64,000 nucleotides of DNA from the NCBI GenBank assembly GCA_965238225.1, contig OZ250183.1, positions 1,338,264 to 1,402,263 on the forward strand, given 5' to 3'. Within the stretch, counting starts at the first letter, position 1; each line of letters starts with the position of its first letter. The notes beneath the pieces were generated by a model, which worked only from the letters and a program-made list of their open reading frames with translations, searched no databases and was not told the origin of the DNA. The translations under genes were made by a program, and so were the position numbers. Below are positions 4,337 to 33,154 of the stretch, piece after piece. This DNA comes from Gammaproteobacteria bacterium. GTDB lineage: Bacteria > Pseudomonadota > Gammaproteobacteria > Eutrophobiales > Eutrophobiaceae.

Positions 4337-6169
4337 CTATTCCACAGTAACAGACTTTGCTAGATTCCTAGGTTGATCGACATCAGCACCCTTCAAGACT
4401 GCAATATGATAGGCAAACAATTGTAATGACACCGTATAGACAATTGGAGATATATACTCACCAACTGGAGATATTTTTAATAATTCAGTCTCTTCATCTA
4501 AATCAATTTTAGCGCTCGTATCAGTAATAACATATAGTTTTCCACCGCGGGCTTTAACCTCGTGCAAATTTGATTTGAGTTTTTCCAAAAGAGTGTTATT
4601 CGGCGCTACAGCAATAACAGGCATTTCTTCGTCCACCAATGCCAATGGCCCATGTTTCAATTCACCTGCAGGATATGCTTCTGCATGAATATAAGATATT
4701 TCTTTCAGCTTAAGCGCGCCTTCCATTGCTACAGGCAACATCGTACCTCTTCCTAGATAAAGCGCATGATTCTTATTGGCAAATTGACTTGCCAAATCTC
4801 TAATTTTCTCGTTACATTCAAGCACTGAATTTATTTTTCCAGGCAAATGCTCAAGTTGTGAAACAATTTCCTTCTCGGTTTCAGTGTTTAACCCATGTCG
4901 TCTGGCAATAACTAGAATCAGCAAAAGTAATGAAACCAATTGTGTTGTAAATGCCTTAGTCGATGCCACGCCAATTTCCATACCTGCCCTTGTCAAAAAA
5001 ACTAAGTCTGACTCACGCGTCATCGTGCTCTCTGCAACATTACATATGCTTAAGGTGCTTAAAAAAGATAATTCCTTTGCCTTCCTCAATGCAGCTAATG
5101 TGTCTGCGGTTTCGCCAGACTGTGAGATAGTTATAAATAAAGTATTTTTTGGAACGAAAATATCTCTATATCTAAACTCACTGGCAACCTCAACTTGGCA
5201 AGGAATATTTGCAATCTCTTCAGCCCAGTATTTTGCGACTAGGCTGGCATGATAACTGGTTCCACACGCAACAATATTCATTGACTCAACTTTATCAAAA
5301 ATATGACTCGCCGCATGACCAAAGCCATCTTCCAATACCAAGCCTTGCTCCAATCTTCCTTCAAGGGCATCTGTGATAGCTGTCGGCTGTTCATATATTT
5401 CTTTCAACATATAGTGCCTAAAGCCAGCCTTGCCAGTATTCTCTGCGGATAATTCTGACAATCTGATCGGGCGTTCAACAACATCACCATTTTTATCATA
5501 GATAGTTAAAATATCTCGACTGATATCTGCAACATCACCTTCCTCAAGAAAAATAAACTGTTGAGTAACAAACAATAAAGCAAACGCATCTGATGCGATG
5601 AAATACTCACCGATCCCAACACCTATTACCAATGGACTACCACTTCGTGTGGCAAGAATTCTGTCAGGATCATTTTTATTAATAACACCAAGAGCATAGG
5701 CTCCTTTAAGCATCAGCGTTGTTTTCATCACCGCATAAAGCAAGTCTTCTCCTGTATCAAGATAATCATAGATTTGATTTACAATAACTTCACTGTCTGT
5801 ATCGGAAGTGAATTTATAGCCCAGTTTCGCCTGTTGCTCTCTAAGTTTTTCGTGATTCTCTATAATGCCATTGTGGACTAAAGCAAGCTGATCACGACAA
5901 ATATGAGGATGGGCATTCTCGATCGTGGGTTTCCCATGCGTTGCCCAGCGTGTATGAGCAATCCCTGTTTTCCCTGATAGTTGTCCGCCCCCTAAAGCTC
6001 GCTCAAGTTCCTCAATCTTCCCAACCACCCGAATTCTTTCAAGCAAGTTATCGCTATTAAGTACGGCGATCCCAGCGGAATCATAACCCCTGTATTCCAA
6101 ACGTCTTAGGCCTTCAAACAAAATAGGTGTTACATCCCTTTGTGCAACTGCGCCAACTATGCCACACAT
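4337..6169 (-). CDS. glmS: Glutamine--fructose-6-phosphate aminotransferase
   Basis: 610 aa. N-terminal MCGIVGAV (Ntn Cys1), plus two SIS domains. Full length matches GlmS. Confidence 0.95.
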   Translation of the reverse strand: MCGIVGAVAQRDVTPILFEGLRRLEYRGYDSAGIAVLNSDNLLERIRVVGKIEELERALGGGQLSGKTGIAHTRWATHGKPTIENAHPHICRDQLALVHNGIIENHEKLREQQAKLGYKFTSDTDSEVIVNQIYDYLDTGEDLLYAVMKTTLMLKGAYALGVINKNDPDRILATRSGSPLVIGVGIGEYFIASDAFALLFVTQQFIFLEEGDVADISRDILTIYDKNGDVVERPIRLSELSAENTGKAGFRHYMLKEIYEQPTAITDALEGRLEQGLVLEDGFGHAASHIFDKVESMNIVACGTSYHASLVAKYWAEEIANIPCQVEVASEFRYRDIFVPKNTLFITISQSGETADTLAALRKAKELSFLSTLSICNVAESTMTRESDLVFLTRAGMEIGVASTKAFTTQLVSLLLLILVIARRHGLNTETEKEIVSQLEHLPGKINSVLECNEKIRDLASQFANKNHALYLGRGTMLPVAMEGALKLKEISYIHAEAYPAGELKHGPLALVDEEMPVIAVAPNNTLLEKLKSNLHEVKARGGKLYVITDTSAKIDLDEETELLKISPVGEYISPIVYTVSLQLFAYHIAVLKGADVDQPRNLAKSVTVE

Positions 6170-14101: not shown

Positions 14102-14404
14102 GCTACCTCCTTTTCTTAAACAGTGGCGACCTACACAAAGAGTCGCTTAACAAAAGAGCAGTGATACTAAAAATCAAAGGCACTGTATTAAAAAATACTG
14201 TATTAAAATATTTCCCCATACTAATAATTTGTACTAATAAAATCTTAATTTGTACTAATAAAATCTTGTGTTAATAAAATAAGATTTTATAAAGTGCCCG
14301 ATCCTATAATAGAGTTTCGATACTGGCAAGTAAACTTACAAATATATGTCGTGATGTTAGAATTTATTATCATGGACTTACTTGAGGCAGTACTTTGAGG
14401 AATT

Positions 14405-14481
14405 TGGTAGGCGCGATTGGACTCGAACCAACGACCCCCACCATGTCAAGGTGGTGCTCTAACCAGCTGAGCTACGCGCCT
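14405..14481 (-). tRNA. tRNA-Val (anticodon GAC)
   Basis: Minus-strand read AGGCGCGTAGCTCAGCTGGTTAGAGCACCACCTTGACATGGTGGGGGTCGTTGGTTCGAGTCCAATCGCGCCTACCA. Anticodon loop UUGACAU; 7-bp acceptor stem; CCA encoded. Confidence 0.85.
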
Positions 14482-14583: not shown

Positions 14584-14877
14584 TTATTCTCCCTCACTTT
14601 CTTCTTGCAATTCTGCAATATCTGTTTCAACATCTTCAAGCGCTGATTCTTTCAATCTAGAAATCTCCGCTTCAACATCTTCAAGCGCTAATTGATAACT
14701 TGCTATTTCATTTTCATTGTTCGCTAACTTTTCCTTAAAATCAGAATTTGAATCCTGTAATTCTTGTAGCTTATTTTTTGCTTCGGTCACCTCTACAATG
14801 AGATCTTCGTTCCCTGCATAACTTGCTGTCGCAAAAAATAGTAATGAAACAAATAAAATCAATGTTAATCTTTTCAT
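14584..14877 (-). CDS. Small secreted acidic coiled-coil protein (hypothetical)
   Basis: Signal peptide MKRLTLILFVSLLFFATASYA. Internal 15-aa repeat (EDVEAEISRLK / EDVETDIAELQ) encoded by a 19-bp exact direct repeat with a 45-bp period. Confidence 0.4.
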   Translation of the reverse strand: MKRLTLILFVSLLFFATASYAGNEDLIVEVTEAKNKLQELQDSNSDFKEKLANNENEIASYQLALEDVEAEISRLKESALEDVETDIAELQEESEGE

Positions 14878-14956: not shown

Positions 14957-15643
14957 CTAGGTACGATATCCCCTAGCGCTTTCGAACAAGTCTGTTATCC
15001 AATATATCTGTGCGCCGATAGCAGCAAATGGTAATAATATCCATGCGACATTAAATACAGCTAAGCCCAAAACGATAATACAGAAGTCTGCACGACTGAG
15101 TTTATGAAATATAAATATGACCCAATCTAGTTTTTTTTCTGGTTTTTTTGCTTGCTTTGCCTGCTCTTCCCTGCTGATAGTTTTTAGATTTCTACTCTTT
15201 CTCGCATAGTATATTAGGTCGACAATATAATCAATCAACGCACCTGCTGCTGCTGCTAATCCTAACCAAAACCAAAACTGCTGCCCGCTTACTTGCACTG
15301 TGCCGTAACCTAATGCAGCAAAGAAACTAGCATCCACGATCCAGTCCACCATATCGTCCAGTTTTGCGCCAAAATCAGAAGACATGTTTTTGACCCTAGC
15401 AACTTCACCATCGCAATTATCAAATACATAACTGGCGACCAATAATAACCCGCCAACAATCCCTGTAATCCAATCACCCTGCATAAAACAGGCAGCACAG
15501 CTTAAGCCTAATAAAAGTGATACAACAGTGATCTGATTTGGGGTGATGGGTATTTTCAGAAGTATGGGGGTCAGTCGATAGGATAGATGTCTTATCAAAG
15601 GGAATATCTGTTCTGGCGCTTCAGGGATGCTCGTGCTGTTCAT
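14957..15643 (-). CDS. CDP-alcohol phosphatidyltransferase family membrane protein (paralog 1)
   Basis: 228 aa with D-x2-DGEVAR-x8-G-x3-D-x3-D (DNCDGEVARVKNMSSDFGAKLDDMVD). Multiple TM segments. Transcribed divergently from the hpnL-like gene. Confidence 0.7.
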   Translation of the reverse strand: MNSTSIPEAPEQIFPLIRHLSYRLTPILLKIPITPNQITVVSLLLGLSCAACFMQGDWITGIVGGLLLVASYVFDNCDGEVARVKNMSSDFGAKLDDMVDWIVDASFFAALGYGTVQVSGQQFWFWLGLAAAAGALIDYIVDLIYYARKSRNLKTISREEQAKQAKKPEKKLDWVIFIFHKLSRADFCIIVLGLAVFNVAWILLPFAAIGAQIYWITDLFESARGYRT

Positions 15644-15987
15644 AATTCATTCAAAAAAATCTTCATTCAAAAATCTATGTTGTTAATAGTCTATTGGCTT
15701 TGTGTTTTTTATCAATCACCGAACCATATTGCTTGTTGTATTCCAAGTTCAAAACTCTCAATTTGGCTTGACCTATGCATCACCTACCGTATAACTCCGT
15801 ACAGGCGTATGCTAAGGGCGTACTTTAATGAATATAACGCGAGACATAGCAAGATTTAATTTTTTTATGTCTGCTGCATGTCTGCCGTGATTCTTGCAAA
15901 GAAAATGGCATGTTATACCTCATTTAAGTTATATTGCGTCTATCGTAATATTAGATTATTTCAAAACTAATTTCCTGACAAACATTA

Positions 15988-16959
15988 ATGCGTGTGCTTT
16001 CTATTATTGGTCTGATTTTAGGCCTGTCTATTTTTGTCCTATTGATTCTGTGGCAAGGTATTGATGATCTTTTTCACCTGTTAGCAACATCAGGCTACGA
16101 ATTACTTATTTTACCTATCGTTTGGTCGCCCTGCCTTCTGGCAGCGACTGTTTCATGGTGTATGTTATTTCCGAAACAATATACGCCAAAATTTTTAACG
16201 GCACTCAAAGCGCTTTGGATTGGGCGAGCTATCAATACATTATTGCCTGTCGCCACTATTGGTGGTGAAATTGCCAAAGCTAGGTTAATAACGCTCTGGG
16301 GAGTAAATGGTGTGAACTCTAGTGCTTCTGTGTTGGTAGATAAAACAGTACAAGCAATGGCGGTGGCTATTTGGGCCTTCGTTGGAACACTGCTACTCAT
16401 CTATCTTGCTTTGGATAACGAACTGGCGATTGCAGCCATGCTGGGCATCACTGCCTTAGCCGGAGGTTTGCTGGGATTTATCCTGATACAGCACGCAGGC
16501 ATGGTCGGTTTCATGGCTAAAGTCGTTGGTAAATTTGTTAGTACTGATAGCTGGGAGACCATCACCAATAATGCCAGAGAAGTGGATGCCATTGTCCGAG
16601 ATATATATAGCGATTACCATTGCATCATCATCTCAACACTGTGGCGTACATTTGGTCTCGTATTACAGACCTCCGAAGTCTGGCTGGCTTGCTGTTTGCT
16701 CGGTTTTCCTATCAGTATTATTGAAGCTTTGATGTTGAAAAGCCTAACAAGTACCATCAGTGATATCGCTTTCTTTATTCCAAATGCGTATGGGATTCAG
16801 GAAGGCAGTTATGTTGTGTTAGGTGCGCTGCTTGGAATAATGCCCGATATAGCATTAGCTATATCGCTGGCAACAAGGATTCGAGAGTTTCTAATCGATA
16901 TTCCTGGCTTAGTGGTCTGGCAACACTTTGAAAGTAAACGGCTTGTGAGTAAAAAGTAA
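15988..16959 (+). CDS. hpnL: HpnL-like / UPF0104 (lysylphosphatidylglycerol-synthase TM-region-like, 'flippase-like') integral membrane protein
   Basis: 323 aa and polytopic. This is the family that accompanies GT2 lipid glycosyltransferases. It is the first gene of a same-strand run with the GT, radical SAM and YdjC genes. Confidence 0.6.
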   Translation: MRVLSIIGLILGLSIFVLLILWQGIDDLFHLLATSGYELLILPIVWSPCLLAATVSWCMLFPKQYTPKFLTALKALWIGRAINTLLPVATIGGEIAKARLITLWGVNGVNSSASVLVDKTVQAMAVAIWAFVGTLLLIYLALDNELAIAAMLGITALAGGLLGFILIQHAGMVGFMAKVVGKFVSTDSWETITNNAREVDAIVRDIYSDYHCIIISTLWRTFGLVLQTSEVWLACCLLGFPISIIEALMLKSLTSTISDIAFFIPNAYGIQEGSYVVLGALLGIMPDIALAISLATRIREFLIDIPGLVVWQHFESKRLVSKK

Positions 16960-16999
16960 AAAAATATTAATTAATCAAAAAATATATAATGGATTTTCG

Positions 17000-18171
17000 A
17001 TGAATAACTACGAAATCATATTTTATCTGTTGTTATTGATTAATCTCTGCGCGATTGGCTATTTATTATTCGCTAGTTTTTGCATCATTAGGCTTCGAAA
17101 AATCAAAAAAACCCCCATACCTTCTCAAGCTTTACACCGCCTGTCACGATATTTAAACCTATTTGTGGTTTAGAACGCGGCATAGATAAGAATTTACGAT
17201 CATTTTGCGAACAAGATTATCCTGAATACCAAATCATCTTTGGGTTGCATGGAAAAGATGATGCGGCAATTCCTGTGATTGAAAAGATTATCCATGATTA
17301 TCCGCATCTGGATTTAAAAATGGTCGTCGATGCACGGTTACATGGCTCAAACCGTAAGGTCTCCAATCTAATTAATATGTTTCACTTGACCAAATATGAC
17401 ATTCTACTGGTTGCAGACAGTGATATGCATGCCAGTAAACATTACCTGCGCAATATTGTTGCGCCATTTGCCGATACCGCAAACGGTGCTGTCACCTGCC
17501 TTTATTCAGGTCGTGCCGCAGGTAATATCGCTTCAAAACTAAATGCCATGTATATCAATGAATGGTTTCTCCCTTCGGTGCTTATCTCAAATGCGCTGAA
17601 AGATATTAGTTATTGTCTGGGGGCGACGATGGCCATACGCCGTGGAATATTGACTAATTTTGGAGGTTTCAAGGCGCTGGCTGATTATCTGGCTGATGAC
17701 TACATGCTGGGTCAAATGGTCACAAAATGCGGCTATAAAATACATTTATCGCACACGATAGTAGAAAACATGTCCTACGAATCAAGCTATAAATCATTGT
17801 TCTTGCATGAGCTTCGTTGGGCTAGAACACTCAGAGCCGTTGAACCACTGGGCTATCTCGGCACCTTTTTGACCGACGCATTAGTAATAAGTAGCCTGAC
17901 TACATTATTCGCGTTGATATTCACACAACACACATTTTTACCAGCAACGATTTTAGTGACTACGATTACTGCTCGAATTTTTCTACATCTACAGGTAAAA
18001 TCGGTGCTTAGTTTAAGTGGTGTGGATTTATTGCTGCTTATTCCGGCGAGGGATATACTGTCATTTATTATCCGAATAATAAGCTTTACCGTACATTCAT
18101 TTGAATGGAGAAATCGCATATTTTCTGTAGATGATGGCGGTCTGATGCATGAAGATTCAGGAAACCAATGA
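17000..18171 (+). pseudogene. hpnI: HpnI-like family 2/21 (ceramide-glucosyltransferase-like) lipid glycosyltransferase; reading frame interrupted at an A7C5 tract (17105-17116)
   Basis: Frame 2 (ATG at 17000) gives a TM N-terminus MNNYEIIFYLLLLINLCAIGYLLFASFCIIRLRKIKKTP, then stops at 17171. Frame 1 continues …FTPPVTIFKPICGLERGIDKNLRSFCEQDYPEYQIIFGLHGKDD…KVSNLINMF…VADSDM…, which are GT21/HpnI signature blocks, to 18171. One extra base in the A7 or C5 run would fuse the two frames. Confidence 0.55.
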
Positions 18172-18281
18172 ACAGTCTTCAACTTGGTGAGATAAAAACT
18201 AAAGAAGACAATTAAAAACACGACAAGCTACAGATAAAATAGTTTTGTAGTTTTAATGAAGAATGCAGGAGTCCCGTTGGT

Positions 18282-19703
18282 ATGTTGAAAACATTATTTT
18301 TAAACCCACCCTCCTTTAATGGATTTGACGGTGGTGCTGGGTCTCGTTACCAATGTACACGAGAGGTAAAATCTTTCTGGTATCCAACATGGCTCGCTCA
18401 ACTATCAGCTCTGGTTGAAGGCAGTCGCTTAATCGACGCACCGGCAAGAAATATGTCGCTGGACAAAGTTTTACCTCTAGCAACTGATTATGAATTCCTA
18501 GTGCTGTATACAAGCACACCTTCATTTCTAAACGACGTAAAAATTGCAGAGGCATTCAAACGAGAAAATCCAAAATTACTCATTGGTTTTTGCGGTCCAC
18601 ATGTTGCAGTCAATCCAGATCACACTGTCCTTACTTCTGATGCTATTGATTTTGTCGCGGGGAACGAATTTGATTTCACCATTCAAGAAATCGCTAAAGA
18701 ACAACCTTTAAAAGAAGTCGATGGCATTACCTACAAAAAAAATGGTAAACCAGTTCACAATAAAGACCGTGCATTGATTGAAGATATGGATTCACTGCCT
18801 TGGGTAACTAAAATCTATAAAGAAAATCTGGTCACAGAAGATTACTACAATGGCTACATGCTGCATCCTTACATGTCTTTTTATACTGGCAGAGGTTGCA
18901 AATCTCGTTGTACTTTTTGTCTCTGGCCACAAACTATTTCTGGCCATAACTACCGCACCCGTTCAGTCGATAACATCATTGCAGAATTAATTTATGCAAG
19001 AGATAACTTCCCTGAGGTTAAGGAATTTTTCTTTGATGATGATACGCTAACGGACAATATCGAACATGTAGAGGCATTAGCAAAAAAGATTGGCAAGTTA
19101 GGTATCACTTGGTCTTGCAATGCAAAAGCCAATGTCCCCTATGAAACACTGAAGATAATGAAAGACAATGGTCTGCGCCTTTTACTGGTCGGTTACGAAT
19201 CCGGTAATCAGCAGATATTAATAAACATCAAGAAAGGCATAAGAACAGATATTGCGCGTCAGTTCACCAAAGACTGTCATAGTTTGGGCATCCTCATTCA
19301 CGGAACTTTTATTGTTGGTCTTCCAGGAGAAACAGCGGACACTATTGAAGAATCAATTAAATATGCACAGGAACTAAATCCGCAAACCATCCAAGTGTCA
19401 CTGCCTGCTGCTTATCCTGGAACATTTCTCTACAAACAGGCAATTGAGAATGGTTGGTTAATAGATGACACCACATTGGTAGGCGATAATGGTGTTCAAC
19501 ATTCGGTGTTGAACTATCCACACCTGCCCAGTGATGATATTTTTGAGGCTGTTGATAATTTCTACAAGCGCTTCTATTTCCGTCCGTGGAAAATGGCAAC
19601 ATTATTTTTCGAAATGTGTCAGGATTGGGAAATTATGAAACGTCGCCTTCGTGAAGGCGTGGAATTCTTTAAATTCCTTTTCGTGCGGGAGAGCACAGTC
19701 TGA
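18282..19703 (+). CDS. hpnJ: HpnJ-like B12-binding radical SAM enzyme
   Basis: 473 aa. The N-terminus KTLFLNPPSFNGFDGGAGSRYQ…SFWYPTWLAQ is the characteristic HpnJ start. A CxxxCxxC cluster (GRGCKSRCTFCLWPQ) lies mid-protein. Confidence 0.8.
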   Translation: MLKTLFLNPPSFNGFDGGAGSRYQCTREVKSFWYPTWLAQLSALVEGSRLIDAPARNMSLDKVLPLATDYEFLVLYTSTPSFLNDVKIAEAFKRENPKLLIGFCGPHVAVNPDHTVLTSDAIDFVAGNEFDFTIQEIAKEQPLKEVDGITYKKNGKPVHNKDRALIEDMDSLPWVTKIYKENLVTEDYYNGYMLHPYMSFYTGRGCKSRCTFCLWPQTISGHNYRTRSVDNIIAELIYARDNFPEVKEFFFDDDTLTDNIEHVEALAKKIGKLGITWSCNAKANVPYETLKIMKDNGLRLLLVGYESGNQQILINIKKGIRTDIARQFTKDCHSLGILIHGTFIVGLPGETADTIEESIKYAQELNPQTIQVSLPAAYPGTFLYKQAIENGWLIDDTTLVGDNGVQHSVLNYPHLPSDDIFEAVDNFYKRFYFRPWKMATLFFEMCQDWEIMKRRLREGVEFFKFLFVRESTV

Positions 19704-19708
19704 AAAAA

Positions 19709-20551
19709 TTGATTGTGACAGGCGATGATTTTGGTCTGTCAATCCCCATCAACGAAGCTGTTTCCCAAGCTCATCAAAAAGGCATTCTCACATCAACCAG
19801 TTTGATGGTTTCTGCAACTGAAGCAGATGATGCAATCGCACGAGCCAAGCAGTTGCCAAATCTTAATGTTGGTTTACATCTAGTGCTATCCAATGGTTGT
19901 TCCTGTCTACCGCACAGTGACATTCCTAATCTTGTAAATACTGATGGTGAATTTTCAAATAGGCTTGTCAGTAATGGCATCAAGATATTTTTCAAAGCAA
20001 GCGTCAAGCAGCAATTGAAAGATGAAATCCGCGCACAATTCGAAGCATTTCAAAAAACTGGACTACGCCTTGACCATGTGAATGCGCATAATCATTTTCA
20101 CCTTCATCCTACCGTCTTTGATGCCATCATCGAGATTGGCAAAGATTATGGAATGAATGCTGTCCGAGTCCCTGATGAAAGACCTCTACATGTACTGATA
20201 AATCACCCTAAAGAAAAAATAACGCGATTTGCCATTTGGCTACTCCTCAAGCCATTTATTTTAAGAATGAAAAAGCGACTCATTAAAAATAAAATTAAAT
20301 TTAATGCGAATATTTTTGGTTTGCATCATACCGGGCACATGAATCTTAATACTCTAGCTCGGATACTTCCAAACCTCAAAGATGGCTTGTCAGAAATTTA
20401 TCTGCACCCAGCAACGAAACTATGGGATGACATTGATCCGCTTACAAAAGATTATGAATTTGAAGCAGAATACAAAGCACTCATTCATCCACGAGTAAAA
20501 CGTATCATCGAAAAATTTTCGATTGAGTTAACAACTTTTCAAGAAGCCTAG
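19709..20551 (+). CDS. hpnK: HpnK-like YdjC-family carbohydrate deacetylase
   Basis: 280 aa. MIVTGDDFGLS…GILTSTSLMV…NVGLHLVL is the YdjC/HpnK N-terminal signature. It starts 6 nt after the hpnJ-like stop. Confidence 0.75.
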   Translation: MIVTGDDFGLSIPINEAVSQAHQKGILTSTSLMVSATEADDAIARAKQLPNLNVGLHLVLSNGCSCLPHSDIPNLVNTDGEFSNRLVSNGIKIFFKASVKQQLKDEIRAQFEAFQKTGLRLDHVNAHNHFHLHPTVFDAIIEIGKDYGMNAVRVPDERPLHVLINHPKEKITRFAIWLLLKPFILRMKKRLIKNKIKFNANIFGLHHTGHMNLNTLARILPNLKDGLSEIYLHPATKLWDDIDPLTKDYEFEAEYKALIHPRVKRIIEKFSIELTTFQEA

Positions 20552-20566
20552 GTGGCCTTTTAAATT

Positions 20567-21172
20567 ATGGTTGGAGATTCTTGGACGCATAAAATAGCAC
20601 GGGTTTGTATCTTGCCGCTTGTTAATACGCCTGTCACGCCAAACCATCTGACAACCTTAAGATTAATTACTGGCATAGCTGCTTGTGGTCTATTTGCCAT
20701 AGGAACGACACAGTGGAACTCCTATGGCGGTTTACTATGGCTATTATCTACTTTTCTAGACCGCGCAGATGGTGAGCTGGCTCGCGTCAGCGACAAAACC
20801 AGTCTGTGGGGTCATCAATATGATTATTACTCAGATATGTTTGTCACAGCATTATTCTTTATTGGAATCGGTATTGGCTTAAGAAATACAAGCTGCTGGA
20901 ATATAGAGCTTAGATTTTGGACGATTGTCATGGGCATTTGTGCAGCGACTGGTGTGATTGTTGCTGAAATCCTTGCCGAAAAAATTGATGAGGCGCAAAA
21001 AGATACTGGAAAAAAGGCCTATGCCGGTTTTGCTGGTTTTGATTTTGATGACATAATATATCTCTTCGCGCCTGTTGTTTGGTTAAATCTACACATACCT
21101 TTTCTGATAGGTGCTACAGCAGGCGCGCCAGCATTTGCCTTGCTTACTTGGTATCGCTTCAAGAAACTTTAA
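20567..21172 (+). CDS. CDP-alcohol phosphatidyltransferase family membrane protein (paralog 2)
   Basis: 201 aa. Motif LDRADGELARVSDKTSLWGHQYDYYSD fits D-x2-DG-x2-AR…G-x3-D-x3-D. It shares the N-terminal TPN(Q/H)(I/L)T motif with paralog 1. Confidence 0.65.
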   Translation: MVGDSWTHKIARVCILPLVNTPVTPNHLTTLRLITGIAACGLFAIGTTQWNSYGGLLWLLSTFLDRADGELARVSDKTSLWGHQYDYYSDMFVTALFFIGIGIGLRNTSCWNIELRFWTIVMGICAATGVIVAEILAEKIDEAQKDTGKKAYAGFAGFDFDDIIYLFAPVVWLNLHIPFLIGATAGAPAFALLTWYRFKKL

Positions 21173-31324: not shown

Positions 31325-31657
<333 letters not shown>

Positions 31658-31789
31658 TTAGCGGAAACGACTCATGAAATACCGCCCTGAGTATGCGATT
31701 AACACAAATTTTTAAACGCATTTGGAAAGAGTGATCCACGAAAAGCCGGGTGCTAAAGCACACACTTTGAGAGATGAATGATTTGAAAT

Positions 31790-32740
31790 GTCTCTGGAGA
31801 TCGAGACCTTCTATCTCTTCATCTTCACTCACGCGAAGTCCAATCATCGCATCATTAGAATATAAAAACGCCACAATATAATAGTGAGAGACAGCCACTG
31901 ATTAAAAATTTTGAACCAGGCTAAAAAACGCGCCAATAATACCACCAACGGAATGGATACCAAATACATCCGGTAACCCATCTTACGTTTAAGCGTGCTT
32001 GCAGCCTTGAAACAGCATCCCAGCAAGTGGGCCCGATCAGGCTGACTACAGTCACAACCCAGTGCACTGCTTTTGTCCATTAAAATCCATTAATTATTAA
32101 TTACAGCCATTGCCATACCACAATCAGCAGCCAAACTTAGGCAGGGTTAGTGGTAGATTATAATACTTGGGAAACTTAAATAGGCTAACCTTGCATTGAG
32201 AAACCGTAGCAAAATCAAGTATGTCGCCATGGTATAGGCTCGTCATTTCTTGTAGTCTGACGATCATAATTATTTCATTTCAGGAATTGCAATCAGCTGG
32301 CCATACCAAAACCGCCCCAGAAGCTAATCTGACTATATACATATAAAACCCAGTATTGTTACAAACTTCAAAAATTGCTGATAAAATTTGCGAACCAATA
32401 AAACCAAGCCCGGAATGGTCATAAATAATACTAAAGTGATTTTGTTCAGACAATAAAAGAGTCCTGTGATTCAGTAATGCGATCTAATCCCAAATTCTAG
32501 AACCAATAATGCGAGTTATTCTGTACGATTCATCAAAATGCTGGATTCATCACAAAAACAGTACTCTGAGAGCCATGAAATTGAAATTTGAAGAAATTGC
32601 GCGACAGGTTCTGGATAAACTTCCATCTGATCTTGGCAAAATACAGTCACAATTTGCTTGTCTAAAAATTATTATTAATATACATAACAATAACTTAGGC
32701 AAAAAGTGCGTCATTTATTTTTTTGATGCATTTTAATAAA
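31790..32740 (-). pseudogene. Second, heavily decayed glnK-amtB copy: fragments of glnK 3' half (~32500-32740), amtB N-terminal region (~32250-32440) and amtB C-terminal region (31790-31985) in different frames with internal deletions
   Basis: Minus-strand reads LVLFMTIPGLVLLVRKFYQQFLKFVTILGFICI*, then DGLPDVFGIHSVGGIIGAFF… and …HYYIVAFLYSNDAMIGLRVSEDEEIEGLDLQRH, matching the AmtB DVFGVHGVGGIVG and GLRVxEExExEGLD motifs. FLPK plus a shared 'tttttgcctaag' 12-mer and 'aactcgcat' match glnK. Track ORFs 31638..31898 and 31844..32080 are pieces of this. Confidence 0.45.
32406..32434. repeat. 29-bp direct repeat, copy 2 (aagcccGgaatggtcataaataatactaa)
   Basis: See copy 1. The two copies are 1,280 bp apart in the same orientation, flanking glnK. 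Confidence 0.8.
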
Positions 32741-33154
32741 ACCAATGATGCAAGTGATTTTGTTACAATAAGATCCTGAGAGAGCAATAAAATCTTAAAT
32801 CTGCGTTACAAGCTACTTTCTCTAGAATAGATCTCGTCTCACGAGAAGAATTTGATATCCAGACAGAATTACTCTCTCGCACACGTGCTTTGCTTGAAGA
32901 ATTAGAAAAAAAAACCAGTGTCTTGGAGAAAATTATCTTGGAGAAAACAAAAAAACCATGATCTGCGCAAAAATATCATGATGTTTAAGGTCAGATATTT
33001 AATGAATATTAATTGACATAGCGCCCCTTCATCATATGATGAATACTAAACTATTGGTATTTTTTAAGTAGTATCCTTGGGGATAACTATCTAGAAAAAC
33101 TATAAAAGAGAGGGCTTTTGAGTCTGCAAATCAGCAGATTATCGACGTCAATGG

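Follow-up and report, generated by a model that had tools for sequence, protein, structure and literature searches.

A recurrent six-gene cassette linking hpnL, hpnI, hpnJ, and hpnK to two CDP-alcohol phosphotransferases, possibly a variant of the hopanoid side-chain cluster

In bacteria that produce hopanoids, HpnI adds N-acetylglucosamine (GlcNAc), HpnK deacetylates it, and HpnJ contracts the sugar ring to a cyclitol ether, a series of steps based on Burkholderia cenocepacia genetics (PMC12583986, PMC13459092). Recent hopanoid surveys have treated hpnL as unexplained and have named other candidate hopanoid genes. HpnI and HpnJ domains were detected only in genomes with squalene-hopene cyclase (SHC, shc) and HpnH in a survey of 62,143 genomes, and a study of Alphaproteobacteria found hpnI/hpnJ to be absent from genomes without hpnH. 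Systems of related design have been described on other lipids, including: (i) gpgSDF of Pseudomonas aeruginosa, which forms glucosaminyl (GlcN)-phosphatidylglycerol (PG), and hexSDF of Clostridioides difficile, each a single operon of a GlcNAc transferase, a deacetylase, and a UPF0104 protein (PMC12713373); and (ii) the calditol synthase Cds of Sulfolobus acidocaldarius, a radical S-adenosylmethionine (SAM) enzyme proposed to contract a lipid-bound hexose to an ether-linked cyclopentane polyol (PMC13459092). Here we examined a 64-kb stretch of the gammaproteobacterial contig OZ250183.1 (the window), in which hpnL-hpnI-hpnJ-hpnK is bracketed by two cytidine diphosphate (CDP)-alcohol phosphotransferases (PTs), referred to as PT1 and PT2. 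The six genes were found to be a co-inherited unit that recurs in many mostly marine lineages, a few of which carry it next to hopanoid core genes, and the locus may be a PT-bearing variant of the hopanoid side-chain cluster.

The open reading frame (ORF) listing of the window placed the cassette at positions 14957-21172, with PT1 on the minus strand and divergent from hpnL-hpnI-hpnJ-hpnK-PT2 on the plus strand. The features of the locus are as follows.

14957-15643, minus strand: PT1, CDP-alcohol phosphotransferase, 228 aa (PF01066, 49 bits)
15644-15987: divergent intergenic region of 344 bp between PT1 and hpnL, presumed from its position to hold both promoters
15988-16959, plus strand: HpnL, UPF0104/MprF-TM-like "flippase-like" membrane protein, 323 aa (TIGR03476, PF03706)
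17000-18171, plus strand: hpnI, GT2/GT21 glycosyltransferase gene, frameshifted (TIGR03472, PF13506)
18282-19703, plus strand: HpnJ, radical SAM enzyme of the B12-binding-domain type, 473 aa (TIGR03471, PF04055)
19709-20551, plus strand: HpnK, YdjC-family deacetylase, 280 aa, TTG start (TIGR03473, PF04794)
20567-21172, plus strand: PT2, CDP-alcohol phosphotransferase, 201 aa (PF01066, 53.9 bits)
14584-14877, minus strand: ORF of 97 aa downstream of PT1 on the same strand (no Pfam match)

These coordinates match the layout given in the original prediction, an annotation made from the DNA letters, which had described a same-strand hpnL-I-J-K run with a divergent PT upstream and an adjoining PT downstream. 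The spacing of 6 to 16 nt given there was roughly right for hpnJ-hpnK (5 nt) and hpnK-PT2 (15 nt) but not for hpnL-hpnI (40 nt) and hpnI-hpnJ (110 nt). The cassette is flanked in the window by tRNA-Val, thrS, and infC upstream and by lptD, surA, and pdxA downstream. When the cassette was scanned for promoter and terminator consensus sequences, no excess of sites over shuffled sequence was found.

Family assignment of the Hpn proteins relied on NCBIfam models with curated cut-offs, with Pfam as a second line. The HpnL, HpnI, HpnJ, and HpnK assignments proposed earlier were borne out, as all four proteins scored above the curated cut-offs: HpnL with 245.5 bits against TIGR03476 (cut-off 195.65) and 91.2 bits against PF03706; HpnI, as the translation of its frame B (see below), with 382.9 bits against TIGR03472 (cut-off 310) and 150 bits against PF13506, PF13641 also being matched; HpnJ with 753.8 bits against TIGR03471 (cut-off 577.6); and HpnK with 349.5 bits against TIGR03473 (cut-off 232.6) and 219.1 bits against PF04794. 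The HpnJ N-terminus is MLKTLFLNPPSFNGFDGGAGSRYQ, its cluster motif reads C-KSR-C-TF-C, and the protein keeps the 169 positions that are invariant across sequences from PT-containing (PT-type) and classical loci. HpnK likewise retains the invariant residues D6, D7, H57, H123, H127, H129, and H133. When the PT-type proteins were compared with their classical counterparts, no clade-specific fixed substitutions were detected in HpnJ (83 sequences), HpnI (69), or HpnK (54), which suggests that neither the sugar chemistry nor the local recognition of the acceptor has changed. This sequence comparison, though not decisive, lends no support to a new function of the three enzymes. HpnL was found to have two positions fixed differently in the PT clade by the same comparison, and the PT-type HpnL proteins form a separate clade with 24-35% identity to classical HpnL.

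Loci from GTDB genomes were found by an HpnJ scan, with gene order determined by tblastn synteny, and 80 further loci were recovered from metagenomes by a scan with a PT2 alignment. Lineages were defined by clustering HpnJ at 97% identity, and their counts depend on the contigs returned by the pattern scans. PT1 divergent from hpnL-hpnI-hpnJ-hpnK-PT2 was found in GTDB loci L001-L012 and L016, from metagenome-assembled genomes labelled gamma- and alphaproteobacterial, as well as in two abundant marine populations (PT2 clusters P0061 and P0053); the full six-gene order was present in 35 of the 80 metagenome loci, most of the others ending at contig edges. In all, 50 HpnJ lineages contained the PTs, which settles affirmatively whether the arrangement recurs in related genomes. 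The arrangement is conserved far beyond chance, mostly in marine bacterial lineages. PT genes were found in none of the 67 classical hpnJ loci, and only these six genes were conserved across the PT loci. HpnJ, HpnI, HpnK, and HpnL of the PT loci formed one clade each in neighbour-joining trees that were midpoint-rooted and without support values. The ratio of nonsynonymous to synonymous substitution (dN/dS), estimated with dS near saturation, was 0.03-0.13 for the cassette (0.03-0.045 for HpnJ and 0.077 for PT1), at or below that of lptD and surA (0.10-0.15). The six genes are thus a co-inherited unit on which purifying selection is at least as strong as on lptD and surA, and the linkage of hpnLIJK to two CDP-alcohol phosphotransferases, as first noted in the window, proved correct and to be that of a conserved, co-evolving unit.

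Orthologous cassettes were found beside hopanoid core genes. The cassettes of one marine population of 31-33% GC (loci L116, L118, L127, L128, and L137) are of the PT type, with identities to the window of 83% for HpnJ, 65% for PT1, and 63-66% for PT2, and are followed by genes for a methyltransferase, a phosphopantetheinyl transferase (PPTase), squalene synthase, SHC, HpnG, a PhyH-like oxygenase, HpnN, a third PT, and HpnA. The SHC of these shc-linked loci scored 803 bits (TIGR01507) and their HpnN 784 bits, the latter above cut-off, and the HpnJ tree places their lineage as the sister of the window's own low-GC group. In addition, (i) HpnN (931 bits) adjoins PT2 in L168, at the base of the PT clade; (ii) an HpnN fragment follows PT2 in L143; and (iii) a classical-type cluster ends in hpnL-PT2 in L162. 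The original prediction had reasoned from the lack of visible core genes to a non-hopanoid acceptor such as a glycerophospholipid; the window does lack the core genes, but the step to a phospholipid fails as stated, since orthologous cassettes precede sqs-shc-hpnG-hpnN.

The third PT paralog lies between hpnN and hpnA (L127 10668-11276; L137 10277-10846), is 40-43% identical to PT2, and is a candidate for a new hopanoid-associated gene family. A PhyH-type dioxygenase is encoded between hpnG and hpnN (L127 7273-8022), with methylphosphonate hydroxylase as its best NCBIfam match (208 bits, cut-off 500). In Supplementary Table S8 of a hopanoid preprint, a CDP-alcohol phosphatidyltransferase family appears without comment, with 1409 occurrences within 20 ORFs of shc; the table looks partly mislabelled, rows sampled from it showed no such entry, and we give it little weight. 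Among the PT loci, hpnK is apparently missing between hpnJ and PT2 in L143 and L122, and hpnL stands in the opposite orientation, after PT2, in L172; variants of the cassette therefore exist. One abundant marine lineage (L081-L089 and L104-L109) has a conserved set of genes after PT2 that encode a pyrroloquinoline quinone (PQQ)-dependent dehydrogenase, a MarR regulator, cytochrome P460, and a methyltransferase, together with a block for a PPTase, an NAD-dependent reductase/epimerase, an AMP-ligase, and a hydrolase. A methyltransferase-PPTase pair follows PT2 both here and in the shc-linked L127 lineage, a likeness of gene families.

The two PTs were examined by motif, profile, and structure. 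Both matched PF01066 above its cut-off of 22 bits, and both keep D-x2-DG-x2-AR-x8-G-x3-D-x3-D as read from the translations. The motif is intact in PT1 as DNCDGEVAR-x8-GAKLDDMVD and in PT2 as DRADGELAR-x8-GHQYDYYSD, with the segments TPNQIT and TPNHLT, respectively, so that the TPN(Q/H)(I/L)T and DG-x2-AR…G-x3-D-x3-D motifs pointed out earlier are present in both proteins. The best NCBIfam match of PT1 was archaetidylinositol-phosphate (AIP) synthase NF040950, below cut-off at 71.9 bits (cut-off 180), followed by DIPP synthase NF041135 at 65 bits (cut-off 580) and phosphatidylinositol-phosphate (PIP) synthase NF045883 at 53.1 bits (cut-off 170); PT2 scored 46, 34.9, and 26.8 bits, respectively, against the same three models. 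An identity as PgsA or PssA found no support in these scans, PT1 reaching only 22.8 bits against TIGR00560 (cut-off 109.1) and 29.1 bits against TIGR00473 (cut-off 107), and PT2 giving no match. The closest solved structure to PT1 is AF2299 (PDB 4o6m), and those closest to PT2 are IPCT/DIPPS (PDB 4mnd) and AF2299. PT2 had 1446 homologs at E<=1e-10. Ten PT2 orthologs, from loci labelled alpha- or gammaproteobacterial, had a mean column identity of 77%, with an invariant catalytic motif, an invariant MVGDSWTHK N-terminus, and a GFDFDD block. The positions of the two genes are also fixed: PT1 orthologs hold the same place across PT-type loci, and PT2 follows hpnK in every locus that reaches far enough, or hpnJ where hpnK is missing.

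Compared with the PTs that accept inositol phosphate (AIP/PIP synthases, IPCT/DIPPS, and AF2299), PT1 and PT2 share the catalytic motif and the TPNxxT segment and find among them their best profile and structure matches, but they score far below the cut-offs, lack the fused cytidylyltransferase domain, and have no inositol-1-phosphate synthase near the cassette as judged by family scans and the search for conserved neighbours. That search, across the PT loci, found no conserved phosphatase, cytidylyltransferase, or inositol-phosphate synthase gene. Since no cytidylyltransferase accompanies the PTs, CDP-diacylglycerol is the likeliest donor; a cyclitol phosphate is the acceptor of every one of their nearest characterised relatives, a hint that PT1 and PT2 may recognise a polyol phosphate or else the head group itself, be it cyclitol or sugar.

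A departure from the fixed position of PT1 was noted on the closest complete chromosome, OZ253445.1, which has no PT1 beside hpnL and instead an 81%-identical copy of PT1 about 220 kb from its cassette, probably separated from it by a rearrangement. This unlinked PT1 (L090; OZ253445.1, 1,486,236-1,506,922) adjoins lipA/lipB and is near IS110- and rve-type transposase fragments. The 97-aa ORF that follows PT1 in the window begins with a hydrophobic segment and also has a charged, repetitive stretch, which were read by eye as a likely signal peptide and a coiled coil, respectively. A 60%-identical ORF also follows the unlinked PT1 of OZ253445.1 (L090 10808-11071) and is absent from more distant PT loci; PT1 and the ORF therefore move together in this lineage, and the ORF may be an accessory partner of PT1.

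Relative to the bacteriohopanetetrol (BHT) cyclitol ether pathway, the cassette has the hpnI-hpnJ-hpnK order of many classical loci, the same invariant residues, and four matches at curated level; it differs in its two fixed PTs, in having hpnL lead the operon, in the separate PT clade found in four trees, and in that most PT cassettes are unlinked from shc, hpnH, and hpnN. The likeness to gpgSDF and hexSDF, which act on glycerolipids and yield a cationic or zwitterionic head group, is one of design only: although HpnL is of the same family type (UPF0104/COG0392) as GpgF, the synthase (GT4) and deacetylase (COG3233) of those systems are not homologous to HpnI (GT2/GT21) and HpnK (YdjC), and the systems have neither a radical SAM ring contraction nor a PT, their acceptor PG coming from housekeeping genes. 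Cds is likened to HpnJ by its described reaction but is archaeal, acts on a tetraether lipid, and gives a product that is not an aminosugar derivative. The Francisella FlmF2/NaxD/FlmK and Bordetella LgmABC systems for lipid A also use a GT2-type transferase and a YdjC-family deacetylase to expose an amine on a lipid-linked N-acetylhexosamine (HexNAc). They work from an undecaprenyl phosphate carrier and need an ArnT-like transferase, which the cassette lacks. A full-text search of the literature found no paper with CDP-alcohol phosphotransferases as fixed partners of hpnIJKL.

We suggest the following course of reactions. From their family membership, HpnI would transfer GlcNAc from UDP-GlcNAc to a terminal hydroxyl of a lipid polyol, HpnK would remove the acetyl group, and HpnJ would contract the glucosamine ring to give an aminocyclitol in ether linkage; HpnL, if it works like the UPF0104 proteins of gpgSDF and hexSDF, may flip the cationic, amine-bearing product to the outer leaflet. 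The PTs are predicted to be obligatory partners of this GlcN/aminocyclitol chemistry, most likely with CDP-diacylglycerol as donor, and could either (i) attach a group through a phosphodiester to the head group, whether polyol or cyclitol; or (ii) make a phospholipid that shares the pathway. The anchor would be a C35 bacteriohopanepolyol supplied by shc/hpnH/hpnG elsewhere in the genome. We put the chance that the locus is a PT-bearing variant of the hopanoid side-chain cluster with a hopanoid anchor, and not a hopanoid-free pathway, at about even; on balance a hopanoid is favored because orthologous cassettes lie in hopanoid clusters. Several findings weigh against it. To our knowledge, no phosphorylated or phosphatidylated hopanoid has been described, and we know of no need for a PT in classical producers of BHT cyclitol ether. 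Genes for SHC, HpnH, HpnG, HpnN, and squalene synthase were searched for by tblastn with validated queries and by family scans, and none was present in the 64-kb window, as the original prediction had held for shc/hpnH/hpnG. SHC, HpnH, and HpnN were likewise found nearby in 0 of 14 sequences (the window and 13 GTDB PT loci, 237 kb), and hopanoid core genes in 0 of the 23 PT lineages in which hpnJ is flanked on each side by 6.5 kb or more of sequence. Linkage to hopanoid genes amounts to 4-5 of 50 PT lineages versus 39 of the 67 classical hpnJ loci (58%), counted there as a core gene within 10 kb. The genomic settings of the cassette are unrelated to one another (thrS/lptD in the window, TamB/PQQ-dehydrogenase elsewhere), which fits a self-sufficient unit. 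The host is apparently a gammaproteobacterial relative of Thioglobaceae that carries the cassette as an accessory element, and the 62,143-genome survey found SHC and HpnH in 0 of 21 genomes of the order PS1, which there includes Thioglobaceae.

This unusual unlinking and the taxonomic background keep alive a reading of the cassette as an autonomous, non-hopanoid pathway, which we regard as the less probable of the two, though a serious contender. One or both PTs would then make a CDP-diacylglycerol-derived phosphatidyl-polyol (e.g., PG or phosphatidyl-cyclitol) in place of bacteriohopanetetrol, HpnI/K/J would convert it first to a GlcN-phospholipid and then to an aminocyclitol-ether phospholipid, HpnL would flip the product, and the few shc-linked cassettes would be remnants of an origin of the module within a hopanoid cluster. 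GT21 enzymes with ceramide or diacylglycerol acceptors exist, which speaks for such a pathway, as does the finding that six genes, and only these, travel together into unrelated contexts, with 45-46 of the 50 PT lineages lacking a nearby hopanoid gene compared with the 58% linkage of classical loci. Further in its favor are the apparent kinship with Thioglobaceae, given that SHC and HpnH were found by the same survey in 0 of 12 Thiotrichales and 0 of 19 Rickettsiales in addition to the PS1 genomes, and two precedents on other lipids: gpgSDF, a proven GlcNAc-then-GlcN modification of PG with a UPF0104 flippase (PMC12713373), and archaeal calditol, for which radical SAM ring contraction on a glycerol-linked sugar has been proposed (PMC13459092). 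The surveyed PS1 genomes are, however, also without hpnI/J according to the authors' statement and therefore say little about genomes that carry the cassette. Moreover, the autonomous pathway is at odds with the fact that at least four separate lineages, the sister of the window's own group among them, have an orthologous cassette embedded in a true hopanoid cluster, with the location of the third PT paralog between hpnN and hpnA, with the lack of any sequence signature of a changed acceptor in HpnI, and with the absence from the cassette of a phosphatase or polyol-phosphate supply gene. A product other than a bilayer head group, either a polyprenyl-phosphate-linked aminosugar for lipid A or an envelope polymer, or a soluble inositol-phosphate-like solute made by DIPPS-like PTs, is very improbable. 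GT2 and YdjC deacetylase pairs do act on undecaprenyl-phosphate-HexNAc (Francisella FlmF2/NaxD and Bordetella LgmA/LgmC), among the closest solved PT relatives (AF2299 and IPCT/DIPPS) is one that links two substrates, both of them soluble, and the cassette adjoins lptD in the window; yet HpnI/K/J match at equivalog level and are not of the ArnC/NaxD type, no ArnT-like transferase or cytidylyltransferase domain is found in the cassette or conserved beside it, and the lptD neighbourhood is confined to the window, L001, and L002.

The consequences differ with the anchor. If it is a hopanoid, the PTs would be new enzymes of the hopanoid pathway and would predict a phospho-derivative not yet described, and cyclitol-ether hopanoids, which serve as biomarkers, would have unrecognised sources in the apparent Thioglobaceae relatives and other marine bacteria. 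A covalent hopanoid-phospholipid conjugate, formed when a phosphatidyl group is transferred to the head group of BHT cyclitol ether, is one possibility and would likewise be undescribed. If the anchor is a phospholipid, the product would represent a new class of lipid, and the locus would break the published rule by which hpnI/hpnJ are confined to genomes with shc. That the cassette acts autonomously in hopanoid-free marine bacteria, including the apparent Candidatus Thioglobus relatives, and makes there an ether-linked aminocyclitol phospholipid as a bacterial counterpart of the archaeal calditol lipids, seems to us rather unlikely. With either anchor, the parallel to the S-D-F operons would give HpnL a testable role as a flippase of the amine-bearing product.

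The hpnI gene of the window had been taken as one glycosyltransferase ORF, which does not hold for the sequence as given: it is frameshifted by a 1-nt deletion near 17097-17111. The 57 N-terminal codons are in frame A (17000-17173) and the rest is in the -1 frame (frame B, 17092-18171). The lesion lies within 17092-17170, and alignment with L001 and L002, where HpnI is 398-400 aa, puts one missing base at CG-AAAAAT, at about 17097-17102; restoring one base recovers the conserved 'LRKN' segment. hpnI is intact in the close relatives L001, L002, L097, L098, and L100, and the break at this site is unique to the window among the close relatives compared. Between 17092 and 17245, frame B offers no ATG, GTG, or TTG, and its translation alone cannot yield the invariant K-P-x-x-G segment. 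A programmed -1 frameshift was considered and is unlikely, as neither A run gives an in-frame X-XXY-YYZ heptamer and the relatives have a plain ORF. As hpnI encodes the first enzyme, the pathway may be blocked in this genome or the assembly may be wrong. Its dN/dS of 0.10-0.13 equals the value between intact orthologs, so that the lesion either arose recently or is an error in the assembly. The hpnI of a close metagenomic relative (L102, 6204-7377) is also split, but at about residue 130. As the sites differ between L102 and the window, either the two genes broke independently or both breaks are errors of assembly.

Gene decay was also observed elsewhere in the window. The glnK gene, for a PII protein (31325-31657, minus strand), is preceded by about 1.5 kb without a long ORF (region 31325-33150, minus strand), in which only fragments of an ammonium transporter are found, e.g., GLPDVFGIHSVGGIIGAFF and IGLRVSEDEEIEGLDLQRH. 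This suggests a decayed amtB pseudogene beside glnK and ongoing gene loss in the genome; real gene decay therefore occurs here. Whether the cassette is itself being lost, with a real hpnI frameshift, no full-length HpnI, and an early-stage pseudo-operon whatever the ancestral product, has to be weighed apart from the choice of anchor; we think it possible but doubt it. Such a loss is suggested by a frameshift that is present in the given sequence and absent from five close relatives, by the lack of a frame-B start codon upstream of the invariant K-P-x-x-G, and by the heavily decayed amtB relic in the same window. It is countered by there being a single lesion, in a short A run, by the intact state of the remainder of hpnI and of its five partner genes with dN/dS like that of intact orthologs, and by the full-length appearance of the approximately 40 other window genes checked. 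A homopolymer miscall, moreover, would look identical, and L102 has an unrelated hpnI frameshift of that kind.

The approximately 40 further ORFs of the window are housekeeping genes, including those for a barA-like kinase, glmS, pheST, pdxA, rsmA, a TRAP transporter, aroE, folA, thyA, lgt, PEPCK, uvrA, ssb, pyk, cysI, degP, pitA, and coq7, and the GC content of the window is about 39%. The window's ThrS shares 87% identity with its counterpart on OZ253445.1 and 77% with a protein of 'uncultured Candidatus Thioglobus sp.'. The genome of the latter (L091) shares the order thrS-infC-rpmI-rplT-pheS-pheT-...-glmS-Hpt-kinase with the window and has no cassette beside thrS. In the window, glmS (4337-6169, minus strand) lies about 9 kb from the cassette, and its enzyme makes glucosamine-6-phosphate, a precursor of UDP-GlcNAc; as the thrS-to-glmS-to-kinase order is also present in the cassette-free L091, this proximity looks coincidental. 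An Rfam match to the HPnc0260 'antisense RNA' was detected at 14305-14443 on the plus strand (61.3 bits, gathering 59), opposite tRNA-Val(GAC) at 14405-14481 on the minus strand, and is probably a by-product of the tRNA sequence and not a separate gene.

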